Of a DNA stretch of 64,000 bases, positions 4,138-24,736 are shown one piece after another. The stretch lies in NCBI RefSeq assembly GCF_003334335.1, contig NZ_QOWQ01000021.1, one strand, 5' to 3'. The first letter of the stretch is position 1. Each line of letters starts with the position of its first letter. Origin of the DNA: Escherichia coli (lineage in GTDB: Bacteria; Pseudomonadota; Gammaproteobacteria; Enterobacterales; Enterobacteriaceae). The translations under genes were made by a program, and so were the position numbers. Under the pieces are notes generated by a model, which was not told the origin of the DNA, did not search any database, and was given only the letters and a program-made list of their open reading frames with translations.

Positions 4138-4953
4138 TCAGTAACTCGTTGCCTTCTCAAATTCTCTAGCCGCATGCCGCTCACCTTGATGCAGGATATC
4201 AATCAATTTTTCATAGAATGGTTTCCAATTGCGCGACCATGAAGACTGGTGCAGATCGGGAATGTATATTTGAATAGCTCGATGAACATTAGCTGATTTG
4301 ATAGATACGAATCCCTTTCCACTACAACGCTCGCAGATTTTAAACACTGGCACACCACGCTCGCTTGTGGCTTTGCGGTCCAGTACCTCTCCCTTTCCAC
4401 CACAACGACACCTGGCACTTATCACTCCCTTCCCTTTACATACATCGCAAACGACTGGTACAACTTCCGTTACCTCTGTCCATCTTTCCCAGTCTGACGG
4501 TCGAACAGCACGGGAGCGACTGGCCCAATATGGTGCTTTACCCCATGGGTATGAAACCTTACGAATGACCTGCTTACGGGGTGTTAGTCCGGTACCACTG
4601 CAACTATGGCATGTTACGCTGGTGGCCGCCGATCGGGAATACTCAGCAAAAGCAAACTGAGCCAGTACCAGCATACACCAGCCAAATTCACCACCAGCTG
4701 CTTTACGCACATTCTTCGGTGCAATTTCCATCGCGTGACGCGCCAGCGCCTGGACTGCCATCTGCTCATCAGTCTTGCTGATACCGGCCTTCCCGAAGAA
4801 GGCCGCCAGGCCAAACCGCTCACGATTACTGGTGGTACCAATAGCCGCCATAACATCGGTGCCTGTAAGACGTTCCGGAGAGGTTCCTTTCACATCGTCG
4901 CCGATATACATTCCCTGAGGACTGAAGTATTTTAGCGATGCCTCAAGCTTCAT
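4138..4953 (-). CDS. Late antiterminator Q, QuuQ/YdfT type (DnaJ-like CxxCxGxG zinc fingers)
   Basis: 271 aa. Contains MKLEASLKYFSPQ and four CxxCxGxG-type motifs (CHSCSGTG, CDVCKGKG, CRCGGKG, CERCSGKG), as in the Qin prophage Q homologue from memory. It is the last gene before PR'. Confidence 0.75.
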   Translation of the reverse strand: MKLEASLKYFSPQGMYIGDDVKGTSPERLTGTDVMAAIGTTSNRERFGLAAFFGKAGISKTDEQMAVQALARHAMEIAPKNVRKAAGGEFGWCMLVLAQFAFAEYSRSAATSVTCHSCSGTGLTPRKQVIRKVSYPWGKAPYWASRSRAVRPSDWERWTEVTEVVPVVCDVCKGKGVISARCRCGGKGEVLDRKATSERGVPVFKICERCSGKGFVSIKSANVHRAIQIYIPDLHQSSWSRNWKPFYEKLIDILHQGERHAAREFEKATSY

Positions 4954-9163: not shown

Positions 9164-9283
9164 TTACTCTTCCCGCTTCGCTATGAGGTTATAAACCCCG
9201 CTGATCGGGTCATACCATATGCTGCGTGGCAGCAGCTTCTGGAAGTAGCGCGGATCTGGCATTACGGTTGACTGTTGTGACAT
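9164..9283 (-). CDS. Small early protein (39 aa from the internal start MSQQSTVMPDP)
   Basis: The ATG at 9283 is preceded by AGGTG and follows the cro-like stop. The longer form in the ORF track overlaps the cro-like gene. Confidence 0.45.
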   Translation of the reverse strand: MSQQSTVMPDPRYFQKLLPRSIWYDPISGVYNLIAKREE

Positions 9284-10188: not shown

Positions 10189-10641
10189 GTGAATGTAATG
10201 TTAAATGATAAACATGACTCTTATTCCGTAAACTCTCTGTTGATTTGTGCTCAAGCGGCACTATTAGGCGGTACCGCTTCAAACCATGACGTCATCAACC
10301 TCTTAGATGTTGCACAAGACATCATCTCTTCAACTATGAATTCCTTTACAGATAGTAGCGCTCCCGGCGCTAATGTTGATTTATTTACCAAAGAAGTTAG
10401 CGCTAGTAATTCCCCAGCATTATCTTTCGGTCAACGTATTCTCCAAGCGCGTAAATCAGCAAGTCTTCAACAACATCATATTGCCAGCGGTGCTGGAGTG
10501 ACTGTTCAGGCTGTTTCGTTATGGGAAAATGACTCAGCAATTCCTACTTGCGACAAAATTATCCCATTGGCAAATCTTCTTGGCTGCGATCCAATGTGGT
10601 TACTGACTGGTGCTTATAAACAAAATCAGGAGGAAGCATAA
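10189..10641 (+). CDS. First early-left gene: 150-aa protein with a unique N-domain and a C-terminal XRE HTH
   Basis: GAGGTG before the ATG. C-terminal segment FGQRILQARKSASLQQHHIASGAGVTVQAVSLWENDSAIP is an XRE-type HTH. Confidence 0.7.
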   Translation: MNVMLNDKHDSYSVNSLLICAQAALLGGTASNHDVINLLDVAQDIISSTMNSFTDSSAPGANVDLFTKEVSASNSPALSFGQRILQARKSASLQQHHIASGAGVTVQAVSLWENDSAIPTCDKIIPLANLLGCDPMWLLTGAYKQNQEEA

Positions 10642-10642
10642 G

Positions 10643-10834
10643 ATGAAAATGTTCAAAGGCCTCACCAACGAACCGGAGACAGCTTTTCATCACATTGCCG
10701 TACTGCTTGAAGCGGGGTTAATCATTTCGGCTTCCGGTGATGAAGAATGTGATGAACTTTCGGATGATATCTTTTTACTGGCACAACAATACGCCAGAAG
10801 CGCATGCGATGCATTTAAGGAGCAAAGAACATGA
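10643..10834 (+). CDS. Small acidic helical protein (63 aa), paralogous to the N-domain of the preceding ORF
   Basis: AGGAGG lies 14 nt upstream of ATG 10643. See the finding for the alignment. Confidence 0.6.
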   Translation: MKMFKGLTNEPETAFHHIAVLLEAGLIISASGDEECDELSDDIFLLAQQYARSACDAFKEQRT

Positions 10835-11022
10835 TAACTCCATTAAATATTCTTGAGGAAGTGGCGGCACAAATAAAAGAGAATACATCAATGCTTGAAT
10901 TTATATTTAAGAATTCGCCCGACCAAGGAGAGACAGACGATTATTTATGCTGTCTCATTCGCTCCATGAATAAGACCTGTGAAATGGCTTACGAGTATAT
11001 AGAAACACTACGCAACGAATAA
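10831..11022 (+). CDS. Small acidic helical protein (63 aa), third member of the paralogous set
   Basis: ATGA start/stop overlap with the previous ORF. Confidence 0.6.
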   Translation: MITPLNILEEVAAQIKENTSMLEFIFKNSPDQGETDDYLCCLIRSMNKTCEMAYEYIETLRNE

Positions 11023-11206
11023 AGAACACTCAGTAAAAAATCACACATAAAAACATGACGGCCTCTGGTCGTGGATTTCCACAACCAGAAAATAATGGTG
11101 ATGCATGAAAAATAGAAACGCTTATAAAACCGCATTATTAATGGCTAATGCAGGATACTGGTCAGTTGCAATACTGTTTCTCAGAAAAGCATACGGGAAA
11201 TAACAA

Positions 11207-11566
11207 ATGGCATGTACAACCATTTATAAAGATCGTCGCCGCATGGTAACAGCGGCACTCCGGCGGATGCAACGTAAAACAGGTAGTAATCTGCTCGTCG
11301 TTGACCTCCCGGACGGAGAAATAACAACGATAGAAATAACTGAACAGTTCATGAACCAGTTGTTATTACGATTTGAGGGTCTTACCCGTGTTGAATATGG
11401 ACGGACGGAAGGAGAAGCAACAATCCGTACCGCATACCAGAATGCCATCGGTATTAATCAACACACGGAATATCTCACTGAATCAGGGAAACTGATAGTG
11501 GACGGCCTTTTAAAAGAGGTTGTTGACTACGTAAAAGAGAAATATATCAGTGGAGGAATTAACTGA
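11207..11566 (+). CDS. Hypothetical early-left protein (119 aa)
   Basis: ORF track; co-oriented; no domain recognised. Confidence 0.55.
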   Translation: MACTTIYKDRRRMVTAALRRMQRKTGSNLLVVDLPDGEITTIEITEQFMNQLLLRFEGLTRVEYGRTEGEATIRTAYQNAIGINQHTEYLTESGKLIVDGLLKEVVDYVKEKYISGGIN

Positions 11567-11775
11567 TGTCTGATTTATCCCCTCTTATACACGAAAAAGT
11601 ACAGATCATTATGACGATTGAAAATGGCCAAGTCACAGGTGTCTGCAAAGTCCGCGATGGCTAGCTGATTGCCAGCATGGATACATTCATACGGCTGGCA
11701 GAAAGAGCGGGGTATCAGATAACAGCACCAGCTCAGGAGGAAACCAGTGGCATTAACAGCAACACGCATTCCTGA
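11566..11775 (+). pseudogene. Small ORF split by an in-frame amber codon (32 plus 36 codons)
   Basis: The sequence reads MSDLSPLIHEKVQIIMTIENGQVTGVCKVRDG-TAG(11662-11664)-LIASMDTFIRLAERAGYQITAPAQEETSGINSNTHS in one frame. Confidence 0.4.
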
Positions 11776-11965
11776 GCGGATCCACCGGCAGGCATTGCAG
11801 GTCCTGTTGTTGTACCGATGCCGACGGATATTTCCGCATCGGATACAGCGCACCGGATATCTCAGTCTGAAGGTTAACCGTCGCTGGCGGCTGTTATCGA
11901 AAGACGACGGCCGGAACTGGGAAGTAATGAGTCATGAACGTTATTCGGGAGAAATAAAGAAATGA
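11747..11965 (+). CDS. 72-aa basic protein with a HigB/RelE-like C-terminal motif
   Basis: The segment KVNRRWRLLSKDDGRNWEVMSHERY resembles the E. coli HigB C-terminus (LRVVAM...IREVMTHKEYD, from memory). A paralogue lies at 61966-62193. Confidence 0.5.
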   Translation: MALTATRIPERIHRQALQVLLLYRCRRIFPHRIQRTGYLSLKVNRRWRLLSKDDGRNWEVMSHERYSGEIKK

Positions 11966-12360
11966 TCGACAACCGCACCGCCAGCGCCAGCGCCATTAAC
12001 CAGGCATTACAGAAACATGATACACCCGTCGGCCCGTTATTTTTTGTAACACGCCACGGAAGAACAAAAAAATGCCTCACTCGAAAAACGGCAATTCGTT
12101 ACCTGGCCTTCTTTATGACCACCCGCGCTTTTGAACGTTCAGGATTCCGACAACGCCATCCTGACAAGCGTTTTATCTTCAACGGGAATGAAATATGGAA
12201 ACGTGGAGAATCAACCACAGAGTATACCCGCGCACACCAGCGAACAATCAGACGACTGCGCAGACTCATCGCCAGGAAACAGTATACAGAAAAATGGTTC
12301 AGAAAATATGACACATGGAGCGCCGGATATTACGAACTGATGGCAACAAAACCATTCTGA
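11962..12360 (+). CDS. Hypothetical basic protein (132 aa)
   Basis: ATGA overlap with the preceding ORF; no domain recognised. Confidence 0.55.
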   Translation: MIDNRTASASAINQALQKHDTPVGPLFFVTRHGRTKKCLTRKTAIRYLAFFMTTRAFERSGFRQRHPDKRFIFNGNEIWKRGESTTEYTRAHQRTIRRLRRLIARKQYTEKWFRKYDTWSAGYYELMATKPF

Positions 12361-12420
12361 CGTAAACGAAATTAACCATGACGCAATTAAATAAGGCAAG
12401 CCGAATACATCAGGAGGACC

Positions 12421-12609
12421 ATGAACATTTATTTCAGAATAGTTATATCACTGGCAATTATCACATGTATTTACGGATTAATCGTTCCGGCCCTCATATC
12501 AATGAAGGATACGGTAGCAGTGATTTCTGGCTTTGCTCTGGCGTGTCTGACCCCGCCCTGCATTTATGCCATTTATAAGGGTCTTTCTTTTTCTAAGGAT
12601 AAAAGATGA
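12421..12609 (+). CDS. Small two-TM membrane protein (62 aa)
   Basis: AGGAGG before the ATG. Two hydrophobic helices (IVISLAIITCIYGLIVPALI and VAVISGFALACLTPPCIYAIY). ATGA overlap with the SPFH gene. Confidence 0.65.
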   Translation: MNIYFRIVISLAIITCIYGLIVPALISMKDTVAVISGFALACLTPPCIYAIYKGLSFSKDKR

Positions 12610-13433
12610 AAAAATTACTTTTTGCTTTAGCCCTTGTTCTGCCGACCATTGGCCTTGTCGGTTGCGATCGCGTTGAGCCTGGTAATGTGGGCATCAAAGT
12701 AAACAAACTGGGCGACGATAAAGGCGTCGGTGAAGTGGTCGGTGTTGGGCGCTACTGGACGGGATGGAACACTGAGGTTTACATCTTCCCGACCTTTAAG
12801 CAGATGAAGACCTACGATGATCCATTCAGTTTCCAGATGAGTGACGGTACAACCATCGGCTATCACATCGGCGTGGCCTACAAAGTTGATCCATCCAAAG
12901 TTACCACAGTCTTTCAGACCTACCGCAAAGGCGTGGACGACATTACCGACACCGACCTGCGCCAGAAGATAGCCGACGCACTCAACCGACTGGCCAGCAA
13001 AATGACCACCGACAAATTTATCGACGGCGGCAAGTCTGAGCTGCTGGATGCAGCTCTTAAAGACATTCAGGAAGAAATGACGCCCATCGGTATTCAGGTA
13101 ATGAGCCTCTCATATGTGGGTAAGCCGGAGTACCCGCCTACTGTTATCGACAGCATTAATGCCAAAGTCACGGCGAACCAGAAAACCCTGCAACGCGAGC
13201 AGGAAGTAAAACAGCGCGAAGCGGAAGCCAACATGTTGCGCGCGGAAGCTGCCGGACAGGCAGATGCGATTCGCACAAAAGCCCAGGCCGAAGCCGATGC
13301 TATTCGTTTACGCGGTGAAGCTCTGCGCCAGAACCCCGGTGTTATGGAGCTGGAAGCCATCAACAAGTGGAACGGTACACTGCCGCAATACATGACCAGC
13401 GGTGCCAACACACCATTTATTCAGGTTAAGTAA
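12606..13433 (+). CDS. SPFH/band-7 (prohibitin-like) lipoprotein
   Basis: Signal peptide plus lipobox LVGC. SPFH core followed by an Ala/Glu/Gln-rich coiled coil (REQEVKQREAEANMLRAEAAGQADAIRTKAQAEADAIRLRGEA). Confidence 0.8.
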   Translation: MKKLLFALALVLPTIGLVGCDRVEPGNVGIKVNKLGDDKGVGEVVGVGRYWTGWNTEVYIFPTFKQMKTYDDPFSFQMSDGTTIGYHIGVAYKVDPSKVTTVFQTYRKGVDDITDTDLRQKIADALNRLASKMTTDKFIDGGKSELLDAALKDIQEEMTPIGIQVMSLSYVGKPEYPPTVIDSINAKVTANQKTLQREQEVKQREAEANMLRAEAAGQADAIRTKAQAEADAIRLRGEALRQNPGVMELEAINKWNGTLPQYMTSGANTPFIQVK

Positions 13434-13476
13434 TACATATGCCCGGTATTACACGCCGGGCTGTCTGGAGATAAAA

Positions 13477-14226
13477 ATGAATATTGTAACCATCAACAAC
13501 AAACAGTTTCCGGTAATCGAATATCGCGGTCAGCGTGTTGTGACATTTGCAATGATTGATGACGTCCACCAGCGCCCGGAAGGTACCGCCCGTGCTGCGT
13601 TTAACCGCAACCGTTCTCACTTTATCGAAGGGGTGGATTTTCTTGAAATGACTGCGGACGTAATACGTACGGAGTCACTTTCTGATGCCTTTGCCGCGCG
13701 AACTGCCAAAGGGATCATTCTTTTCGAGTCTGGTTACCTGATGTTGACGAAGCCTTTTAACGATGCTCTTGCATGGCAGGTTCAGCGCGAACTGGTTAAC
13801 AGCTATTTCCGAACTCATGCGCCGCTGACGGAAATGGAGATGATCGCTGCAATGGCCGCCGATGCCGTTCGCCAGCAGAAGCGCCTGAGTCATGTTGAAG
13901 AGAAGATCGAAACGGTCACCAAAGCTGTGGAGAACATCAAACGCGGCACAATGCGCACTGGATATGTCGGTTACCGCCAGGTGGTAGCCAAAAGCGGAAT
14001 GAGTGACGCCAAGTGTCGGAATCTGGTCAACGCCTACCACATCCCTACCGACACGCACGAATTTATGACTCCGGACGGTCTGTTGTCTCGCAGGGCTGTC
14101 GTCGAGCTTGAGACATTTATGGCGGCGTTCCACCAAATGATGTCAGAGGCTGAACCACGCGGCACACGCTGGTATCACCCGAAGATGGGGCTTTTCCAGG
14201 TAATCGGATGGGAGGATAAAGCATGA
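13477..14226 (+). CDS. Antirepressor-like protein (ORF6N-type N-domain, KilA-C/ORF6C-like C-domain), 249 aa from MNIVTINNKQF
   Basis: The segment FPVIEYRGQRVVTFAMIDDVHQRPEGTARAAFNRNRSHFIEGVDFLEM is typical of ORF6N/Ant N-domains. TGGAGA lies before ATG 13477. Confidence 0.65.
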   Translation: MNIVTINNKQFPVIEYRGQRVVTFAMIDDVHQRPEGTARAAFNRNRSHFIEGVDFLEMTADVIRTESLSDAFAARTAKGIILFESGYLMLTKPFNDALAWQVQRELVNSYFRTHAPLTEMEMIAAMAADAVRQQKRLSHVEEKIETVTKAVENIKRGTMRTGYVGYRQVVAKSGMSDAKCRNLVNAYHIPTDTHEFMTPDGLLSRRAVVELETFMAAFHQMMSEAEPRGTRWYHPKMGLFQVIGWEDKA

Positions 14227-14792
14227 TCATCCAGTCAAAACTTATTCGCGCCGCTCTGGTGTGCGCTGCTAAAAACGACGTTCGTTATTACCTGAACGGT
14301 CTTCACATCACGCCAAAACATATTGAGGCAACCAATGGTTCCGTGGCACTGCGCATGACTCACGGCATCCGGACGAAGAAAAACATCATTGTCCAGTTCG
14401 AAGGTGGCGTCCCGGCCAAAGCCGAAACGACAGAGCTGATTTTTAGTAAAGAGCCGATCGCTGTTCATCGCGACCAGTTTCAGCGCCGACTGTCCATTAC
14501 CGGCATTAAATTGGTGGACGGTTGTTTTCCGGATTTGGAACGCATCATTCCGAAAAAATTTGACCTCTGTACACACCCGGTGATCCAGGCGGGTTACCTG
14601 AGTTATCCAGAGAAGATGTTTGGTCGTGAGCGTAAATTTATTCCCGTCCAGTTACGTCCCTCCGGTGACGGGCAAGCGGTCAGAATTCAGTTTGATTCCA
14701 TCATCAACTCAATGTATGGCAATCCTGAATTTGTTGTGATGCCTTGTCGTGATCATGGCGATTTCAATGTGGCTCAGGAGCATCCGGAATGA
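14223..14792 (+). CDS. Truncated DnaN (DNA polymerase III beta-clamp) homologue, 189 aa
   Basis: NDVRYYLNGLHI...EATNGSVALRM aligns with DnaN QDVRYYLNGMLFE...VATDGHRLA. KLVDGCFPDLERIIPK aligns with KLVDGRFPDYRRVLPK. C-terminal FVVMPCR aligns with YVVMPMRL. DnaN sequence is from memory. Confidence 0.7.
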   Translation: MIIQSKLIRAALVCAAKNDVRYYLNGLHITPKHIEATNGSVALRMTHGIRTKKNIIVQFEGGVPAKAETTELIFSKEPIAVHRDQFQRRLSITGIKLVDGCFPDLERIIPKKFDLCTHPVIQAGYLSYPEKMFGRERKFIPVQLRPSGDGQAVRIQFDSIINSMYGNPEFVVMPCRDHGDFNVAQEHPE

Positions 14793-14827
14793 AAATCGAA
14801 TACCAGGACGCCGCAGGAGGTGAATCA

Positions 14828-14911
14828 ATGAGCTGGCCTGATGCAATCGTAACTCTGGGGATGGTATTCGCAGTAGCGTTTGTTGTGTACTCGATTTGTC
14901 GATGGGGATAA
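14828..14911 (+). CDS. 27-aa single-TM peptide (alternative coupled start at 14789 gives 40 aa)
   Basis: Sequence MSWPDAIVTLGMVFAVAFVVYSICRWG. AGGAGG lies 7 nt upstream. The upstream in-frame ATG overlaps the clamp-like stop (ATGA). Confidence 0.5.
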   Translation: MSWPDAIVTLGMVFAVAFVVYSICRWG

Positions 14912-14915
14912 CCAC

Positions 14916-15158
14916 ATGTTCGCTTTGATTCAACGCGGGCAGATATACACCGATAGTGCTGGCTACCCGATAAAAATTGTTCGCTGCATAAACAACACTG
15001 TGTTGTACAGAAGAATGGATGGGCGAACACAGTCAGTAAAAATAAACGATTTCAATGAACTGTTTGAACGGATTGATCACCAGGAATACCGACAAATTCT
15101 GGCAGAAACAGAGCAGGAAGCTCATCTGAAAAAATTACGGGCCATGAAAAGGAAGTAA
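14916..15158 (+). CDS. Hypothetical protein (80 aa from MFALIQRGQIY)
   Basis: ORF track, trimmed to the first ATG after the preceding stop. Confidence 0.5.
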   Translation: MFALIQRGQIYTDSAGYPIKIVRCINNTVLYRRMDGRTQSVKINDFNELFERIDHQEYRQILAETEQEAHLKKLRAMKRK

Positions 15159-15161
15159 AGA

Positions 15162-15308
15162 ATGAATAAAGCATTTGAACAATGGGTCCACCAGCGTTAC
15201 GGCAATCGCTATGACCTGACACGAGATGTTGACGGTTTCTACTGTCGTGAAATTGTGAAACGAATGTTTGAAGTGTGGTGCCACTGCCGTGGGCTGAGTG
15301 TTGTGTGA
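15162..15308 (+). CDS. Small Cys-containing protein (48 aa)
   Basis: Sequence MNKAFEQWVHQRYGNRYDLTRDVDGFYCREIVKRMFEVWCHCRGLSVV. It starts 3 nt after the previous stop. Confidence 0.45.
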   Translation: MNKAFEQWVHQRYGNRYDLTRDVDGFYCREIVKRMFEVWCHCRGLSVV

Positions 15309-15316
15309 GGTAATGC

Positions 15317-15553
15317 ATGGGCAATGTGATTCAACTGGCTCCCAATGAATGGGTTTGTGAAAGCGTTCTAATCGCAATTACCGGGCTCAAACCAGGCACA
15401 ATTCTTCGGGCCCGGAAAGAATGCTGGATGGTTGGAAGAGAGTATATTCACGTATCACCAGACGGTAATCCAAAGCCTTCCAGTGAATGTATGTATAACA
15501 GAAAAGCAATAGATGCCTGGGTCGCTTCAATGAAAAACAAACAACCTGGGTGA
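15317..15553 (+). CDS. xis: Excisionase (lambda Xis-like)
   Basis: RARKECWMVGREYIHVSPDG resembles lambda Xis VRECRIF...DGREYLFH. Lies immediately upstream of int. Confidence 0.7.
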   Translation: MGNVIQLAPNEWVCESVLIAITGLKPGTILRARKECWMVGREYIHVSPDGNPKPSSECMYNRKAIDAWVASMKNKQPG

Positions 15554-15608
15554 TTTAATGCCATGAAGTATGTAAGCTCGTATCGCTCTTGGGCGTCTGG
15601 AGGTATCA

Positions 15609-16922
15609 ATGGATAAAGTCAAATATCCAACAGGCGTCGAAAACCACGGCGGCACATTACGCATCTGGTTTAATTTTAAAGGTAAACGTGTCAGGGAAAA
15701 TCTTGGTGTCCCTGACACTGCCAAGAACAGGAAGATCGCCGGGGAACTGCGGACATCGGTATGTTTTGCCATCCGCACAGGAAGCTTTGATTATGCTGCA
15801 CAGTTCCCTGACTCCCCCAACCTTCAGGCTTTTGGGGTAAGTAAAAAAGAAATTACGGTGAAGGAACTTGAAGAAAAGTGGCTGGATCTGAAACGAATGG
15901 AAATCTCTGCAAATGCATTCAATCGCTATGAATCCGTTGCAAGAACGATGGTTTCGAAAATTGGAGGCAGTAGACTGGTGTCATCGGTAACCAAAGAGGA
16001 ATTGCTGTATATCAGGAAAGATTTGCTAACCGGGTATCAGAATTCAACGAAAAACAAAGCAGCAGCAAAAGGACGGAGCGTCGTTACTGTAAATTATTAC
16101 ATGACGACAATCGCTGGAATGTTTCAGTTTGCTGCAGATCACGGTTACTTAGAAGCAAATCCCTTCCAGGGAATTAAGCCTCTTAAAAGAGCCAGGGCAG
16201 AGCCAGATCCGCTAACTCGTGACGAATTTATTCGCCTGATAGATGCTTGCCGACATCAGCAGACGAAAAACCTGTGGTCATTGGCTGTGTACACAGGAAT
16301 GCGTCACGGTGAACTGGTCTCCCTGGCCTGGGAAGATATCGATCTGAAGGCAGGAACAATTACCATCAGGCGCAATTATACGAAACTTGGTGAGTTCACT
16401 CTACCGAAAACTGAAGCAAGCACAAACAGGGTTGTGCACCTTATCCAGCCCGCTATCAGTGTCCTGAAAAATCAGGCTGAAATGACAAGACTGGGTAAGC
16501 AGTACAACATCAAGGTGCAACTACGTGAATATGGACGTTCAGTGAACCATGAATGTACTTTCGTGTTTAACCCTCAAGTGGTTAGAAAAAGCGAACAGGT
16601 AGGTTTTGTCTACAAAGTCGATTCTGTAGGTGACTCATGGGAAACAGCCATTAAGCGTGCAGGGATCAGGCATCGAAAGGCATACCAGTCACGACACACT
16701 TATGCGTGCTGGTCATTATCTGCCGGAGCAAACCCAAGCTTCATTGCCAGCCAGATGGGCCATGCAAGTGCCCAGATGGTATTCAATGTATACGGAGCAT
16801 GGATGACTGACAGCAATGCAGAACAGATCGCAATGCTGAATCAGAAGCTGACAGATTATGTCCCAATGATGCCCCATAGTCACCAAAGTGACACCAGAGG
16901 CTTATTAAAATCAGTAAGTTAA
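15609..16922 (+). CDS. int: Tyrosine integrase (IntR/IntE-like, N-terminal arm-binding domain)
   Basis: 437 aa. N-terminus KYPTGVENHGGTLRIWFNFKGKRVRE. Catalytic residues R...HxxR...Y (RHGELVSL, SRHTYACW, VYGAW). Last phage gene before yecE. Confidence 0.9.
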   Translation: MDKVKYPTGVENHGGTLRIWFNFKGKRVRENLGVPDTAKNRKIAGELRTSVCFAIRTGSFDYAAQFPDSPNLQAFGVSKKEITVKELEEKWLDLKRMEISANAFNRYESVARTMVSKIGGSRLVSSVTKEELLYIRKDLLTGYQNSTKNKAAAKGRSVVTVNYYMTTIAGMFQFAADHGYLEANPFQGIKPLKRARAEPDPLTRDEFIRLIDACRHQQTKNLWSLAVYTGMRHGELVSLAWEDIDLKAGTITIRRNYTKLGEFTLPKTEASTNRVVHLIQPAISVLKNQAEMTRLGKQYNIKVQLREYGRSVNHECTFVFNPQVVRKSEQVGFVYKVDSVGDSWETAIKRAGIRHRKAYQSRHTYACWSLSAGANPSFIASQMGHASAQMVFNVYGAWMTDSNAEQIAMLNQKLTDYVPMMPHSHQSDTRGLLKSVS

Positions 16923-16948
16923 TCCTTAATACCCGTCATGTTAACTGC

Positions 16949-17674
16949 GTGGAGGGCAACACCACGCTTTACGCCCTGCCGAAACCCGAGGTTGTCCTGC
17001 GCTGGCGTGAACAGACCACAGATGACTTCCGCTTCTGTTTTAAGTTTCCGGCGACCATTTCGCATCAGGCAGCATTACGGCATTGCGATGATTTAGTGAC
17101 TGAATTTTTGACCCGCATGTCACCGTTGGCTCCGCGCATTGGGCAATACTGGCTGCAACTGCCTGCCACATTCGGCCCACGGGAGCTGCCTGCGCTTTGG
17201 CATTTTCTCGATTCTCTCCCTGGCGAATTTAATTATGGTGTGGAAGTCCGCCATCCACAGTTTTTCGCCAAAGGGGAAGAGGAACAAACGCTTAATCGCG
17301 GTTTACATCAGCGCGGCGTTAATCGGGTGATTTTAGACAGCCGCCCGGTTCATGCAGCATGTCCACACAGTGAAGCTATTCGCGACGCTCAACGAAAAAA
17401 ACCTAAAGTTCCGGTACATGCTGTACTGACGGAGACAAATCCGCTGATCCGTTTTATCGGTAGTGATGATATGACGCAAAACCGGGAATTATTTCAGGTC
17501 TGGTTACAGAAATTAGCGCAGTGGCATCAGACCACTACGCCTTATCTTTTTTTACATACGCCAGACATTGCCCTGGCCCCGGAACTGGTACATACCCTGT
17601 GGGAAGACTTACGTAAAACGCTTCCAGAGATCGGAGCAGTTCCGGCTATTCCACAGCAATCTTCTCTTTTCTGA
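16949..17674 (+). pseudogene. yecE: yecE (DUF72), 5'-truncated by the prophage insertion
   Basis: The ORF begins VEGNTTLYALPKPEVV, about residue 32 of K-12 YecE (272 aa, from memory). The upstream sequence is phage DNA. Confidence 0.85.
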
Positions 17675-17726
17675 ATTTGCCACCTATCATAGACAGGTGC
17701 CATCGGCCATTTTAAAGGGAGTTTGT

Positions 17727-19874
<2,148 letters not shown>

Positions 19875-19888
19875 AGGTCTGGTATTAC

Positions 19889-19987
19889 TGCCGGATGCGG
19901 CGTGAATGCCTTATCCGGCCTACAAACCCTTGCTAATTCAATCTATTGCAGGGACTATGTAGGCCTGATAAGCATAGCGCATCAGGC
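19889..19987. repeat. REP/BIME elements
   Basis: GCCGGATGCGGCGTGAATGCCTTATCCGGCCTAC and GTAGGCCTGATAAGCATAGCGCATCAGGC are typical E. coli REP units. Confidence 0.85.
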
Positions 19988-20038
19988 AGTTTTACGTTTG
20001 CATAACCTCAGCGCCCGTTTCCGGGCGCTATTCACTTC

Positions 20039-22468
20039 TTACGCCTGAACAGCAGGCTTATCAAATGCCGTTAACTTCGGTGCGTTACCCGTATATTTTT
20101 CGATATACACCAGCGCAGAGTTACCGGCACAGGCATTTGCCAGCTGCGAGCTGGGGATATCCGCCGTTAACACGTTCGCACTGCCGTTTTTACATAAGCC
20201 ATTTTCCAGATCTGGCCATGCACCTTCATGCACGCATACCACGCCTTTTTTGATCCCGTCAGTCACCACCGCGCCTGTCAAAATCTGACCACGTTTGTTC
20301 CAGACACGCACCAGATCGCCATTCGCAATACCAAATCGAGCAGCATCTTCGGTGTGAATAGTGATCGGTTCACGATCGGCAACCGCATATTTTTTACGCA
20401 GTTCCGCATAGTTAAGCTGACTGTGTAAACGGTGTGCCGGATGTGCGGTCAGAAGCTGCAACTGCTTCTCGTCGGCGGTACCCTTCCACTCATCAGGCGC
20501 AAGCCAGGTTGGGTGTGCCGGGCAATCCTTATAGCCAAATTTTTCCAACGTTTTGGAGTAAATCTCAATTTTGCCACTTGGCGTACCCAGCGCATTTTTC
20601 ACCGGATCGGCGCGGAAATCACCATAACGAACGTACTGTTCGTTCTTCTCGCTGCGGCGCATTTCGATCAGTTTATTTTGCTGCCAGAAGACATTAAACA
20701 TTGGCATAATGACGCGTTGCGCACGGGCCCCTTTCTGAGCGGCATCATAGAAAAATTTCAGCCACGCCATTTCATCTTTACCTTCGGTATAGATCTCTTT
20801 TCCGCCAGGTTTGAGTAATTCCGCAAGATCGGCAAACACATCAAAATCGTTTCGCGCTTCAAATTGCGGAGCAACAGCCTGCTTCATCGGCACAATATGC
20901 TGGTTGCTGTAATCACCGGTCATCGTCAAGTCATTGCGCTCAAACGATGTGGTGATCGGTAATACGATATCTGCATGTTTAGCAGCTGCGGTCCAGTAGC
21001 ATTCAGAAACGACGATCATCTCCGGTTTCTGCCATGCTTTAATCAGACGATTAGTATCCTGGTGATGGGTAAAGTTACCGCCACCCGCCCACCAGATCAT
21101 TTTGATATTCGGATACGTTTGCTCTTTACCGTTATGCTGATATTTGCCGCCAGGATTTTCCAGCGCATCGACGATACGGGCAACAGGAATCGCCCTCATT
21201 CCGCCATCATCAGCGGCCTCGCTGGCCTGTCCGGCAATCGCCGCAGACATTTCCGGCAGCACGCCGCCAACACGTGTCGGGTTGCCACCATTTGAGTAAT
21301 GATAAGAGAAACCAAAACCGCCGCCCGGTGTACCAATCTGCCCTAACATCGCCGCCAGCGTCACCAGCATCCAGTGTTTCTGTTCACCATATTGCTGGCG
21401 CTGAATTCCCCAGCCTGCCATCAGCATTGTGCGATTCGCCGCCATCAGTTCAGCGAGTTTGACTATCTGCGCTTCCGGTACGCCAGTAATTTCCGCCGCC
21501 CAGGCCGCGCTCTTCGGCGTATTATCGCTCTTACCTCTCAGATACTCTTCAAACTGCGGATACCCGGTAGTGTATTTTTCAAGGAACACTTTATCGTGTT
21601 TGCCTTGTGTCATCAGGGTATGCGCAATCCCTAACATCAGTGCCACGTCGGTGCCCATATTCGGCGCGATCCAGGTGGCATTATCGCCAAAGAAGTCGAT
21701 GGTTTCGGAGCGGATAGGATCAATGGCAATCACTGGTTTGCCAGATTTTTTCAGCTGATGGAAGTATTCCAGCCCTTGCTCATCGGTACTGCTCCAGGCA
21801 ATTTTTAAGGTATTCAGCGGGTTCATCCCCCACAGCACCACAACCTGGCTGTTTTCCAGAATCAGCGGCCAGGAGGTCTGCTGTTCATACACCTCTACAG
21901 AACCGACCACATGCGGCATGATCACCTGTGCCGCCCCGGTTGAATAATCGCCGCTATGCCCGGAATAACCGCCCGCCAGGTTCATATAACGTTGCAGTAA
22001 GGTTTGCGCTTTATGCAACACGCCAGAAGAGCGCCAGCCGTATGATCCGGCAAAAATAGCCGATGGTCCGTTAGCTTTGCGAATGCGATCGTGTTGCTCA
22101 TGAATCAGTTTTAATGCTTGTTCCCAGCTCACCTGTACATAGGTATCTTCGCCACGACCTTTCGTCGGTTGCAGTGGATTATCGAGATAGCTTTTTCTCA
22201 CCATCGGATGCTGAATACGCGTCGTGGTGTGTACCTGATCCGCCGCCGTAGACTGTAAGGAATTCGGTATGGTTTTCGCCAGCGCGCCTGTTGAAGAAAC
22301 AATCTTGCCGTCCTTCACTTCTACGTTCATCGCTCCCCAACGTCCCGCGGTGAGGATTTTACCGCCCTTCTCTTCTGCCCATGCGGGGAGCGGTGCTGCC
22401 GATGTCACCACCAGCGCTCCAGCGGCAATACCGCTGTGTTTAATAAATTCACGTCTTGTTAATGTCAT
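20039..22468 (-). CDS. torZ: TMAO/biotin sulfoxide reductase catalytic subunit TorZ (BisZ)
   Basis: 809 aa from [21 protein letters not shown] (Tat signal); molybdopterin oxidoreductase; synteny. Confidence 0.95.
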
Positions 22469-23593: not shown

Positions 23594-23980
23594 AGATTCC
23601 TCTAAATAAATTCCAGAACACCGAAATCATTGTATAATTAAATACACAACGAATTAACCGCTTGCATAACTCGGCACAACACTGCCTGAAATAATCGATA
23701 AAGAATATGATTTATTACAATGTAATCATTAATTGCTAAGGAATAACCCAGTTGCTATTTAGAATATATATTTATCAGTTTTAGCAATTTAAATCCCATA
23801 ATCAATGTGAATATAAAAAATATTATTAGCACAACGCTATGTTCACTGTCACCCGCTCAACAGATCACGGTTATCGTTCGTTTTTTATACTGCTCAGGGA
23901 TAAAAAAAGGCCCCTGTTGAAATTGCAGGGGCCTGGTACGAGCAAGCATCATATTGGGCGACATGATGCAACGGTAAAAA

Positions 23981-24736
<756 letters not shown>

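Follow-up and report, generated by a model that had tools for sequence, protein, structure and literature searches.

The gene described here lies in a 64,000-nucleotide (nt) stretch of Escherichia coli DNA (assembly GCF_003334335.1, contig NZ_QOWQ01000021.1; the whole stretch is referred to below as the window) and encodes a 189-amino acid (aa) homologue of part of the bacterial beta sliding clamp, DnaN. The window is a segment of the E. coli chromosome carrying a lambdoid prophage whose integration site adjoins yecE(DUF72)/yecN, and positions 13400-15000 are 100% identical to NZ_CP053234. Within this prophage, the early-left (PL-type) operon carries the 189-aa gene as a stand-alone accessory gene. 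The first part of that operon encodes a LexA-family repressor, a helix-turn-helix (HTH) protein, small open reading frames (ORFs), a ParE-like gene and an SPFH lipoprotein; these are followed by an ORF6N protein, the 189-aa protein, a small ORF, a DUF4222 protein, a 48-aa protein and an excisionase, with the integrase at the end. As the interval 10372-15766 showed neither a sigma-70-like promoter nor a + strand terminator, the simplest reading is of one PL-type transcript that is switched on at induction. An earlier interpretation made from the DNA letters alone (the sequence-only reading) had proposed that three ORFs at this point form a translationally coupled module. The three + strand ORFs are indeed present, at 13477-14226 (249 aa), 14223-14792 (189 aa) and 14789-14911 (40 aa), as are the ATGA overlaps between them at 14223-14226 and 14789-14792. 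The features of the middle gene are as follows:

14210..14215, + strand: Shine-Dalgarno (SD)-like GGGAGG, 7 nt 5' of the clamp ATG (direct sequence reading)
14223..14792, + strand: short beta-clamp homologue, 189 aa, identical to WP_000586690.1
14223..14564, + strand: residues 1-114, equivalent to DnaN domain II (DnaN ~132-253; profile alignment and AF2 secondary structure)
14565..14753, + strand: residues 115-177, equivalent to the C-terminal half of DnaN domain III only (DnaN 314-366)
14754..14789, + strand: residues 178-189, an acidic, poorly conserved tail (pLDDT of 51 in the last block; mostly-gap columns; net charge -3)

The relationship of the 189-aa protein to DnaN is secure on the basis of profiles and structure. 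Methods that use a single sequence place it on DnaN weakly: PF02767 matched at E=0.005 (17.4 bits against a cut-off of 27, which is below the gathering score), TIGR00663 at E=5e-4 (19.1 bits against a cut-off of 137.65), and the beta clamps of the PDB at E~0.002-0.003, with residues 5-114 of the protein aligned to DnaN 136-253. The curated Pfam and TIGRFAM thresholds for the DnaN family are therefore not reached. A family profile of 189 sequences scored 78.5 bits on E. coli DnaN, hhalign of the protein against DnaN returned a probability of 98.3%, and beta clamps made up all of the top 50 Foldseek matches in the PDB (50/50). These profile and structure checks support the DnaN fold that had been suggested, and the protein is, as had been stated, a truncated DnaN homologue with domain I absent and domain III shortened; the motif matches to DnaN quoted in support of that view are also correct. 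The protein has the beta-alpha-beta-beta-beta repeat fold of clamps and does not have the three domains (I, II and III) that DnaN carries in one chain of ~366 aa. Its current PGAP name is 'beta clamp domain-containing protein', and genome papers call such short phage genes sliding clamps. The PHROG family that contains it, PHROG 3007, is labelled 'RusA-like Holliday junction resolvase', a label that has been copied into many phage GenBank records. We rejected this identity, as the 189-aa protein had no RusA Pfam match at E<=0.1 and its fold is that of a clamp. The label looks like an annotation error, because fold and profiles both identify a beta-clamp fragment.

Comparison with DnaN revealed which parts of the clamp protomer have been kept. 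The profile match covers DnaN 136-253 and 314-366, so that the 189-aa protein corresponds to DnaN with domain I and residues ~254-313 taken out. The sequence-only reading was thus right that domain III is shortened; its estimate of about 45 missing residues becomes ~50, the missing part being all of the N-terminal beta-alpha-beta-beta-beta half (DnaN ~254-313). A single unit of this kind makes up the C-terminal module (residues ~115-177). Compared with the six half-domains of DnaN, the module scored 26.2 bits on 310-366 and 4.7 bits on 250-313, and the family consensus for the domain III match reads EIGFNxxYL...VVMPMRL. An hhalign run with a shallow alignment had put this module on the first half of domain III, a placement that we discarded since the deeper profile shows the second half. 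In the domain II part, a short, conserved G-x-[IV]-P loop (residues 60-68) stands in place of the second inner helix; the loop proline (P64) is invariant in the family. The DNA-contact loop (K-N-D-V-R-Y-Y) is retained. Overall, the protein is three of the six beta-alpha-beta-beta-beta units of a clamp protomer in one contiguous arc, modeled by AF2 as a compact, confident monomer, and the junction between two of its three units is the pocket for the clamp-binding motif (CBM).

What has been lost includes the contact surface by which clamps close into rings. In the DnaN dimer, Ile78 and Phe106 of domain I pack on Ile272 and Leu273, with ion pairs involving Glu298-304 and a continuous sheet across the interface (PMC11139829). 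All of these residues fall in regions that have no counterpart in the 189-aa protein, and because both halves of the canonical interface are absent the normal head-to-tail ring is impossible, as the sequence-only reading had also held. The same observation makes it unlikely that the protein caps host beta through its natural interface, since neither side of that interface is present, and the suggestion that it could cap or poison host beta in this way is disfavored.

The residues of the CBM pocket, in contrast, have been conserved. In DnaN, subsite I of the pocket is formed by R152, L155, T172, G174, H175, R176, L177, P242, R246, V247, V360 and M362, and subsite II by H175, N320, Y323, V344, M362, P363, M364 and R365 (PMC11139829). 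The 189-aa protein carries pocket residues in its domain II part (R21, L24, T37, G39, P103, R107 and I108) and in its domain III part (Q122, Y125, V171, M173, P174 and R176). Among 189 diverse family members, the weighted frequency of the top residue was 0.72 at the 18 pocket positions and 0.37 at the 159 others. The family consensus is the same as E. coli DnaN at 15/18 pocket positions, compared to 27/124 of the other aligned positions, and the window protein itself is the same as DnaN at 11 of the 18. Judged by these alignments, the predicted peptide pocket is the most conserved feature of the family, which fits the earlier suggestion that the protein sequesters clamp-binding proteins.

The family to which the protein belongs is large. 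A profile search of 1.84 billion representatives recovered 1,073 clusters at 50% identity (E<=1e-10), nearly all of them of 170-210 aa, and a homologue is encoded in 253 phage records. The carriers include virulent siphoviruses (Kagunavirus, Skatevirus and Serratia phage Eta-like phages), and in BFVD the same compact fold recurs (TM 0.7-0.8) in many phage proteins of 163-250 aa. The clamp fragment is rare in E. coli, where the gene block comprising it and the shared C-terminal domain of the upstream protein was present in 62 of 5,426 complete genomes. It is also under purifying selection, with a ratio of nonsynonymous to synonymous substitution (dN/dS) of ~0.07 when genes of enterobacterial prophages were compared with the window gene. 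One carrier of a short clamp homologue is the Kagunavirus Escherichia phage fBC-Eco01 (L110), whose replicative helicase and a DUF2800 protein (19505-21712 and 16601-17842) both end in ...EEDLE. These ends may represent a shared C-terminal docking peptide; a phage polymerase motif, EEDLL, has been aligned to the beta-binding motif (PMC3201878).

The charge of the protein also differs from that of DnaN. Its isoelectric point (pI) is 9.08, or 9.48 without the tail, while the family has a median pI of 8.76 and 69% of its members have a pI >7.5. The pI of DnaN is 5.25, and that of the equivalent DnaN fragment 5.81. Among viral clamp homologues, a high positive charge separates those that bind DNA directly without forming a ring from acidic ring formers (PMC3201878, PMC9690074), and the window protein has the combination of clamp fold and high positive charge that marks the UL42/UL44 type.

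Compared to E. coli DnaN (366 aa; PDB 2POL/1MMI), then, the 189-aa window protein is without domain I, residues 254-313, the dimer interface and one inner helix, and has a pI of 9.1 rather than 5.25. A shorter form of DnaN itself, beta*, was reported by Skaliter, Paz-Elizur and Livneh in 1996 as a UV-induced 26-kDa protein made from an internal start. It reportedly consists of domains II and III, starting at DnaN ~135, with domain I absent and all of domain III kept, and was reported to be a clamp, probably a trimer. Beta* and the phage protein have a similar start and both lack domain I, but the phage protein alone is without the interface half of domain III. The non-ring processivity factors of herpesviruses (UL42, UL44, BMRF1 and PF-8) have no detectable sequence relationship to the window protein; they have two full domains and serve a dedicated viral polymerase, whereas the partner of the window protein is probably host-encoded.

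Short phage homologues of polIII-beta were noted in 2011 by Kazlauskas and Venclovas (NAR 39:8291; PMC3201878), who listed five examples; the phages that carry such homologues have no clamp loader. The window protein is of that class, being a DnaN homologue of a phage or prophage, of ~170-210 aa and with domain I absent. The window gene is therefore an already named, known type of gene. The sequence-only reading was not aware of a described function, and in this it still stands, as no functional study of the short phage clamp family was found in the literature; the class had nevertheless been reported in 2011 and NCBI now names the protein. Unlike in PMC3201878, the half-domain III anatomy, the contrast between lost interface and kept pocket, and the basic charge are resolved here, and the five examples have become a family of >1,000 clusters at 50% identity. 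These points and the dismantling of the proposed module are what is new in this study.

We consider that the clamp fragment may be a non-ring, loader-independent, DNA-binding module that docks CBM-bearing host proteins in the manner of UL42/UL44, and give this reading a probability of roughly 0.4. The protein would not encircle DNA and would not need a clamp loader. Instead, it would sit on DNA via its positive surface and the retained K-N-D-V-R-Y-Y loop, while its conserved pocket would dock host proteins carrying a CBM, most plausibly the Pol III core or another polymerase. Such docking would take place on phage DNA early in lytic growth, and would resemble the action of herpesvirus UL42 and UL44 rather than that of a ring clamp. 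This reading is supported by the anatomy of the DnaN match, the loss of the interface and retention of the pocket, the basic pI, the dN/dS of ~0.07 and wide spread of the family among phages, the stand-alone status of the gene amid varied neighbors and replication modules, and the location in an early operon. More tentatively, the same could be true of the short beta family at large, which would then be a non-ring, DNA-bound, loader-independent tether capturing host polymerases or repair proteins with a CBM for phage DNA synthesis, a bacterial-virus counterpart of UL42/UL44 made from DnaN trimmed to its pocket arc.

Several points weigh against a DNA-bound docking module. DNA binding, the monomeric state and peptide binding are all predictions from sequence, and ~12% of the family members are acidic. 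Part of the pocket conservation involves Gly or Pro, which could have been kept for structural reasons. Since lambdoid phages already use the complete host holoenzyme, it is not obvious what an additional tether would bring them. In a homologue-carrying Kagunavirus, a regular-expression scan of the polymerase and helicases detected no canonical CBM. In addition, this E. coli lineage has Ser, Phe or Cys (Ser, S40, in the window protein) in place of His175, the residue that bridges both pocket subsites, and the equivalents of Arg176, Leu177, Val344 and Met364 have also changed in the window protein, so that the specificity of its pocket may be altered. In a tally of loci L017-L096, codon 40 (14340-14342) in the E. 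coli lineage, which is otherwise >=97% identical, was Ser (TCC, n=11), Phe (TTC, n=9) or Cys (TGC, n=1), while in other lineages the position was His (n=50), Arg (n=5) or Tyr (n=1). Position 101, beside the Pro242 equivalent, was the most variable site in the 188-aa group. Variation at codon 40 and position 101 could reflect relaxed constraint or tuning of pocket specificity.

The main rival, which we regard as possible though rather doubtful, is that the protein is a soluble decoy or inhibitor, a free duplicate of the beta pocket that draws host proteins with a CBM (the clamp-loader subunit delta, Hda, MutS/MutL, translesion polymerases or Pol III alpha) off the real clamp, with the outcome that host replication is shut off, initiation de-regulated or mismatch repair reduced in lytic growth. 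The location of the gene suits this role, as the early-left operon of lambdoid phages is a typical place for host-takeover genes. Phages are known to target the host clamp system, and their inhibitors of it include phage G1 ORF240 and N4 gp8, which targets delta. Twort Gp168 (PDB 7EVP; PMC8565349) is another. As early phage proteins acting on the beta-clamp network, these inhibitors are of relevance here only if the fragment is a decoy. All are small, bear no relation to the fragment and work by binding the clamp or delta; none is itself a clamp fragment. That the pocket is the most conserved feature would also be expected of a decoy, and with its dimer interface lost the protein is similar to the beta monomer, for which delta has a ~50-fold higher affinity than for the dimer (PMC11139829). 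Yet a decoy has no obvious need for a basic pI across the family, nor any obvious purpose in keeping the DNA-contact loop; lambdoid phages rely on the same Pol III and loader that it would titrate, and homologues lie inside the replication modules of virulent phages.

It is considerably less probable that the fragment forms a true ring clamp from a larger number of subunits, for example as a D2 tetramer that pairs C-terminal half-domains. The appeal of this arrangement is geometric: three units per chain in four chains would give the 12 units of a closed clamp ring, and the exposed half-domain face and sheet edge need satisfying. Against this, one inner helix has been lost, the strands and helix of the natural interface are absent, a basic pI is atypical of ring formers, and the AF2 monomer is already compact and confident. 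The pockets of such a ring would also point to both faces, a poor fit with a loader, and no phage clamp loader was seen in the loci examined. The peptide pocket of the beta clamp matters as an antibiotic target and as the hub through which most bacterial replication and repair proteins connect. That so large a phage family keeps just this pocket on a basic, non-ring scaffold implies a new way of manipulating that hub. Tethering host enzymes to phage DNA without a loader and titrating them off the host clamp would each be a novel form of replisome hijacking, and inhibitor screening would gain a minimal, monomeric scaffold for the pocket.

The remaining explanation is that of the sequence-only reading, in which the antirepressor-like protein, the clamp fragment and a membrane peptide act as one coupled three-protein module. 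The ATGA overlaps in the window favor it, and co-occurrence was checked in 80 related IMG/VR loci, all close relatives. The upstream neighbor is the more constant of the two. In ~74 of these loci the clamp gene is preceded by an antirepressor-like gene with an ORF6N, pRha or Bro-N N-domain, which directly abuts it with an ATGA overlap in ~45, those being the loci with a high-identity form of the C-terminal domain that these proteins share. In E. coli-, Salmonella- and Klebsiella-type loci this high-identity domain extends as far as the clamp ATG. In Bro-N-type loci the domain is a variant, ~30% identical, that stops ~45 nt short of the clamp ATG, and in Limnobaculum the Bro-N gene is three genes upstream and non-adjacent. 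As the 80 loci are close relatives, the adjacency of ORF6N and clamp genes reflects shared ancestry. Furthermore, ORF6N proteins with full-length identities of 85-93%, shared C-terminal domain and tail RGTRWYHPKMGLFQ included, are encoded by clampless Enterobacter and Atlantibacter prophages. Distant clamp homologues are without any of these neighbors and lie instead beside a ParB-like protein and a helicase, methylases, or structural genes.

Replication genes nearby were equally varied. The identical Klebsiella clamp protein occurs with DnaB/DnaC-type modules and with DEAD-helicase/Toprim modules. We therefore rejected a tie to a single type of replisome, and the earlier idea of an adaptor for the helicase/primase replisome is disfavored by the same finding. 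Varied neighbors and varied replication modules indicate that the clamp fragment is a stand-alone gene.

The third member of the proposed module was found to be the product of a deletion. In a sister E. coli prophage (L016), the gene for an identical clamp protein is followed, with an ATGA overlap, by a gene for a 77-aa protein (phrog_1001), and then by an ead/Ea22-like gene, a DUF551 remnant, a 27-aa ORF with its own strong SD, and DUF4222. In the window, ~1.14 kb comprising the 77-aa gene, the ead/Ea22-like gene and the DUF551 remnant is missing, and it is because of this deletion that the membrane peptide adjoins the clamp gene. The region downstream of the clamp gene is thus arranged as follows:

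14789..14911, + strand: 40-aa ORF, a chimera (comparison with sister prophage L016)
14803..14809, no strand assigned: deletion junction at CCAGGAC, a 7-bp microhomology (blastn of the window against L016, 2890-4130)
14815-14822, + strand: SD AGGAGGTG of the micro-protein gene
14828-14911, + strand: gene for a 27-aa membrane micro-protein, MSWPDAIVTLGMVFAVAFVVYSICRWG, an independent gene with its own SD
14916..15158, + strand: DUF4222 protein, the true neighbor of the micro-protein gene (Pfam DUF4222, E=9e-16; PGAP coordinates)

The 40-aa ORF, which PGAP annotates as a gene, joins the 77-aa gene's first ~6 codons (MKIEYQD) in frame to the leader of the 27-aa peptide gene. The same deletion is shared by 12 of the 80 loci, and in the other 68 the 77-aa gene lies directly 3' of the clamp gene. 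The 27-aa peptide is present in 22 of the 80, always 8 nt 5' of DUF4222; its gene is adjacent to the clamp gene in no loci other than the 12 with the deletion. We also considered the 77-aa protein as an obligate partner of the clamp fragment and rejected it, since it is deleted in the window and 11 other loci and is absent near distant homologues. In Stx phages, phrog_1001 is also found at positions without a detected clamp.

Related single-helix membrane peptides of 22-27 aa (M[SDN]WP[DTE]A...), for which no family assignment was obtained, occur in early-left operons of E. coli and Klebsiella type. They were seen in the window (14815-14911), in L012-L015 (~9210-9278) and in several IMG/VR loci, just 5' of DUF4222 or of a 48-aa gene (p48), the E. 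coli type always before DUF4222. Each is preceded by a purine-rich SD-like motif, which is strong (GGAGGTGA) in E. coli-type and some Klebsiella-type loci and weaker elsewhere. As peptide and SD-like motif are conserved in other prophages, the micro-protein gene is probably real; it is not a partner of the clamp, and the peptide family travels with DUF4222 or p48. For the peptide, a place in such a module is largely refuted, and a functional trio appears very improbable. The ORF6N protein and the membrane peptide are neighbors that lie outside the mechanism of the clamp fragment, and the surrounding "module" is a product of mosaic prophage evolution.

The upstream gene is of the ORF6N type, as had been proposed, and its protein has two parts:

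13477..14226, + strand: antirepressor-like protein, 249 aa (Pfam ORF6N, E=3e-13; PHROG 1726 'anti-repressor', E=1e-70); its stop codon overlaps the clamp start codon (ATGA)
13477-13827, + strand: ORF6N N-domain, residues 1-117 (Pfam)
13828-14223, + strand: shared C-terminal 'AntC' domain, residues 118-249 (matches to phrog_6610 and phrog_63)

Three N-terminal DNA-binding domains (ORF6N, pRha and Bro-N) are found joined to this one C-terminal domain, which corresponds to phrog_6610 and to the C-terminal part of phrog_63 'Ant'; the pRha or Bro-N fusions occur in Klebsiella and Limnobaculum (comparison of window 13828-14223 with L012 7303-8004, L011 6317-7072 and L008 6664-7416). The tail of the C-terminal domain, RGTRW[YF]HPKMGLFQ[AV]IGWE, is almost invariant across genera. 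The tail resembles a CBM minus its Gln, and is present whether or not a clamp fragment is encoded. We rejected its 'KMGLF' as a ligand of the clamp fragment, since the tail RGTRWYHPKMGLFQ[AV]IGWE is equally conserved in prophages without the clamp gene and is thus not clamp-specific. The AF2 model of the ORF6N protein was poor (pLDDT 38) because of a shallow alignment.

No RNA families were found in the region of the three ORFs. PADLOC defense-protein models had zero matches among eight proteins of the region, and a role as a defense system was rejected on that basis. Further upstream in the early-left operon, a two-helix membrane protein of 62 aa (12421-12609) runs 4 nt into the start of the SPFH/Band-7 lipoprotein (12606-13433; PHROG 200), and the two may be a membrane-scaffold pair. 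Among the loci examined, the pair is mostly found in E. coli-type prophages (22/80 loci), with copies of 84-85% identity in a few Klebsiella-type (pRha) loci. Before it, at 11747-12360, is a gene of the ParE-like toxin family (PGAP name; Pfam ParE_like in relatives) followed by one for a 132-aa protein (phrog_1886), a pair that recurs in Klebsiella, Enterobacter and Atlantibacter prophages.

Elsewhere in the window, Rfam identified three tRNA genes, STnc100 and an AsxR-like small RNA (sRNA) at 2285-2931 (mostly on the - strand), near the prophage Q antiterminator gene (4558-4914, coordinates by offset from L001); tRNAs and sRNAs near Q are a typical arrangement of the late regions of Stx-type lambdoid phages. 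In the flanking chromosome, the Rfam matches were MicL (23902-24209), C0465 and ES036. The integrase of the window prophage is whole (15609-16922, 437 aa), and in the near-identical prophage of strain JNEC-KY204 (L001 18210-19523) it is annotated as a pseudogene with an internal stop.

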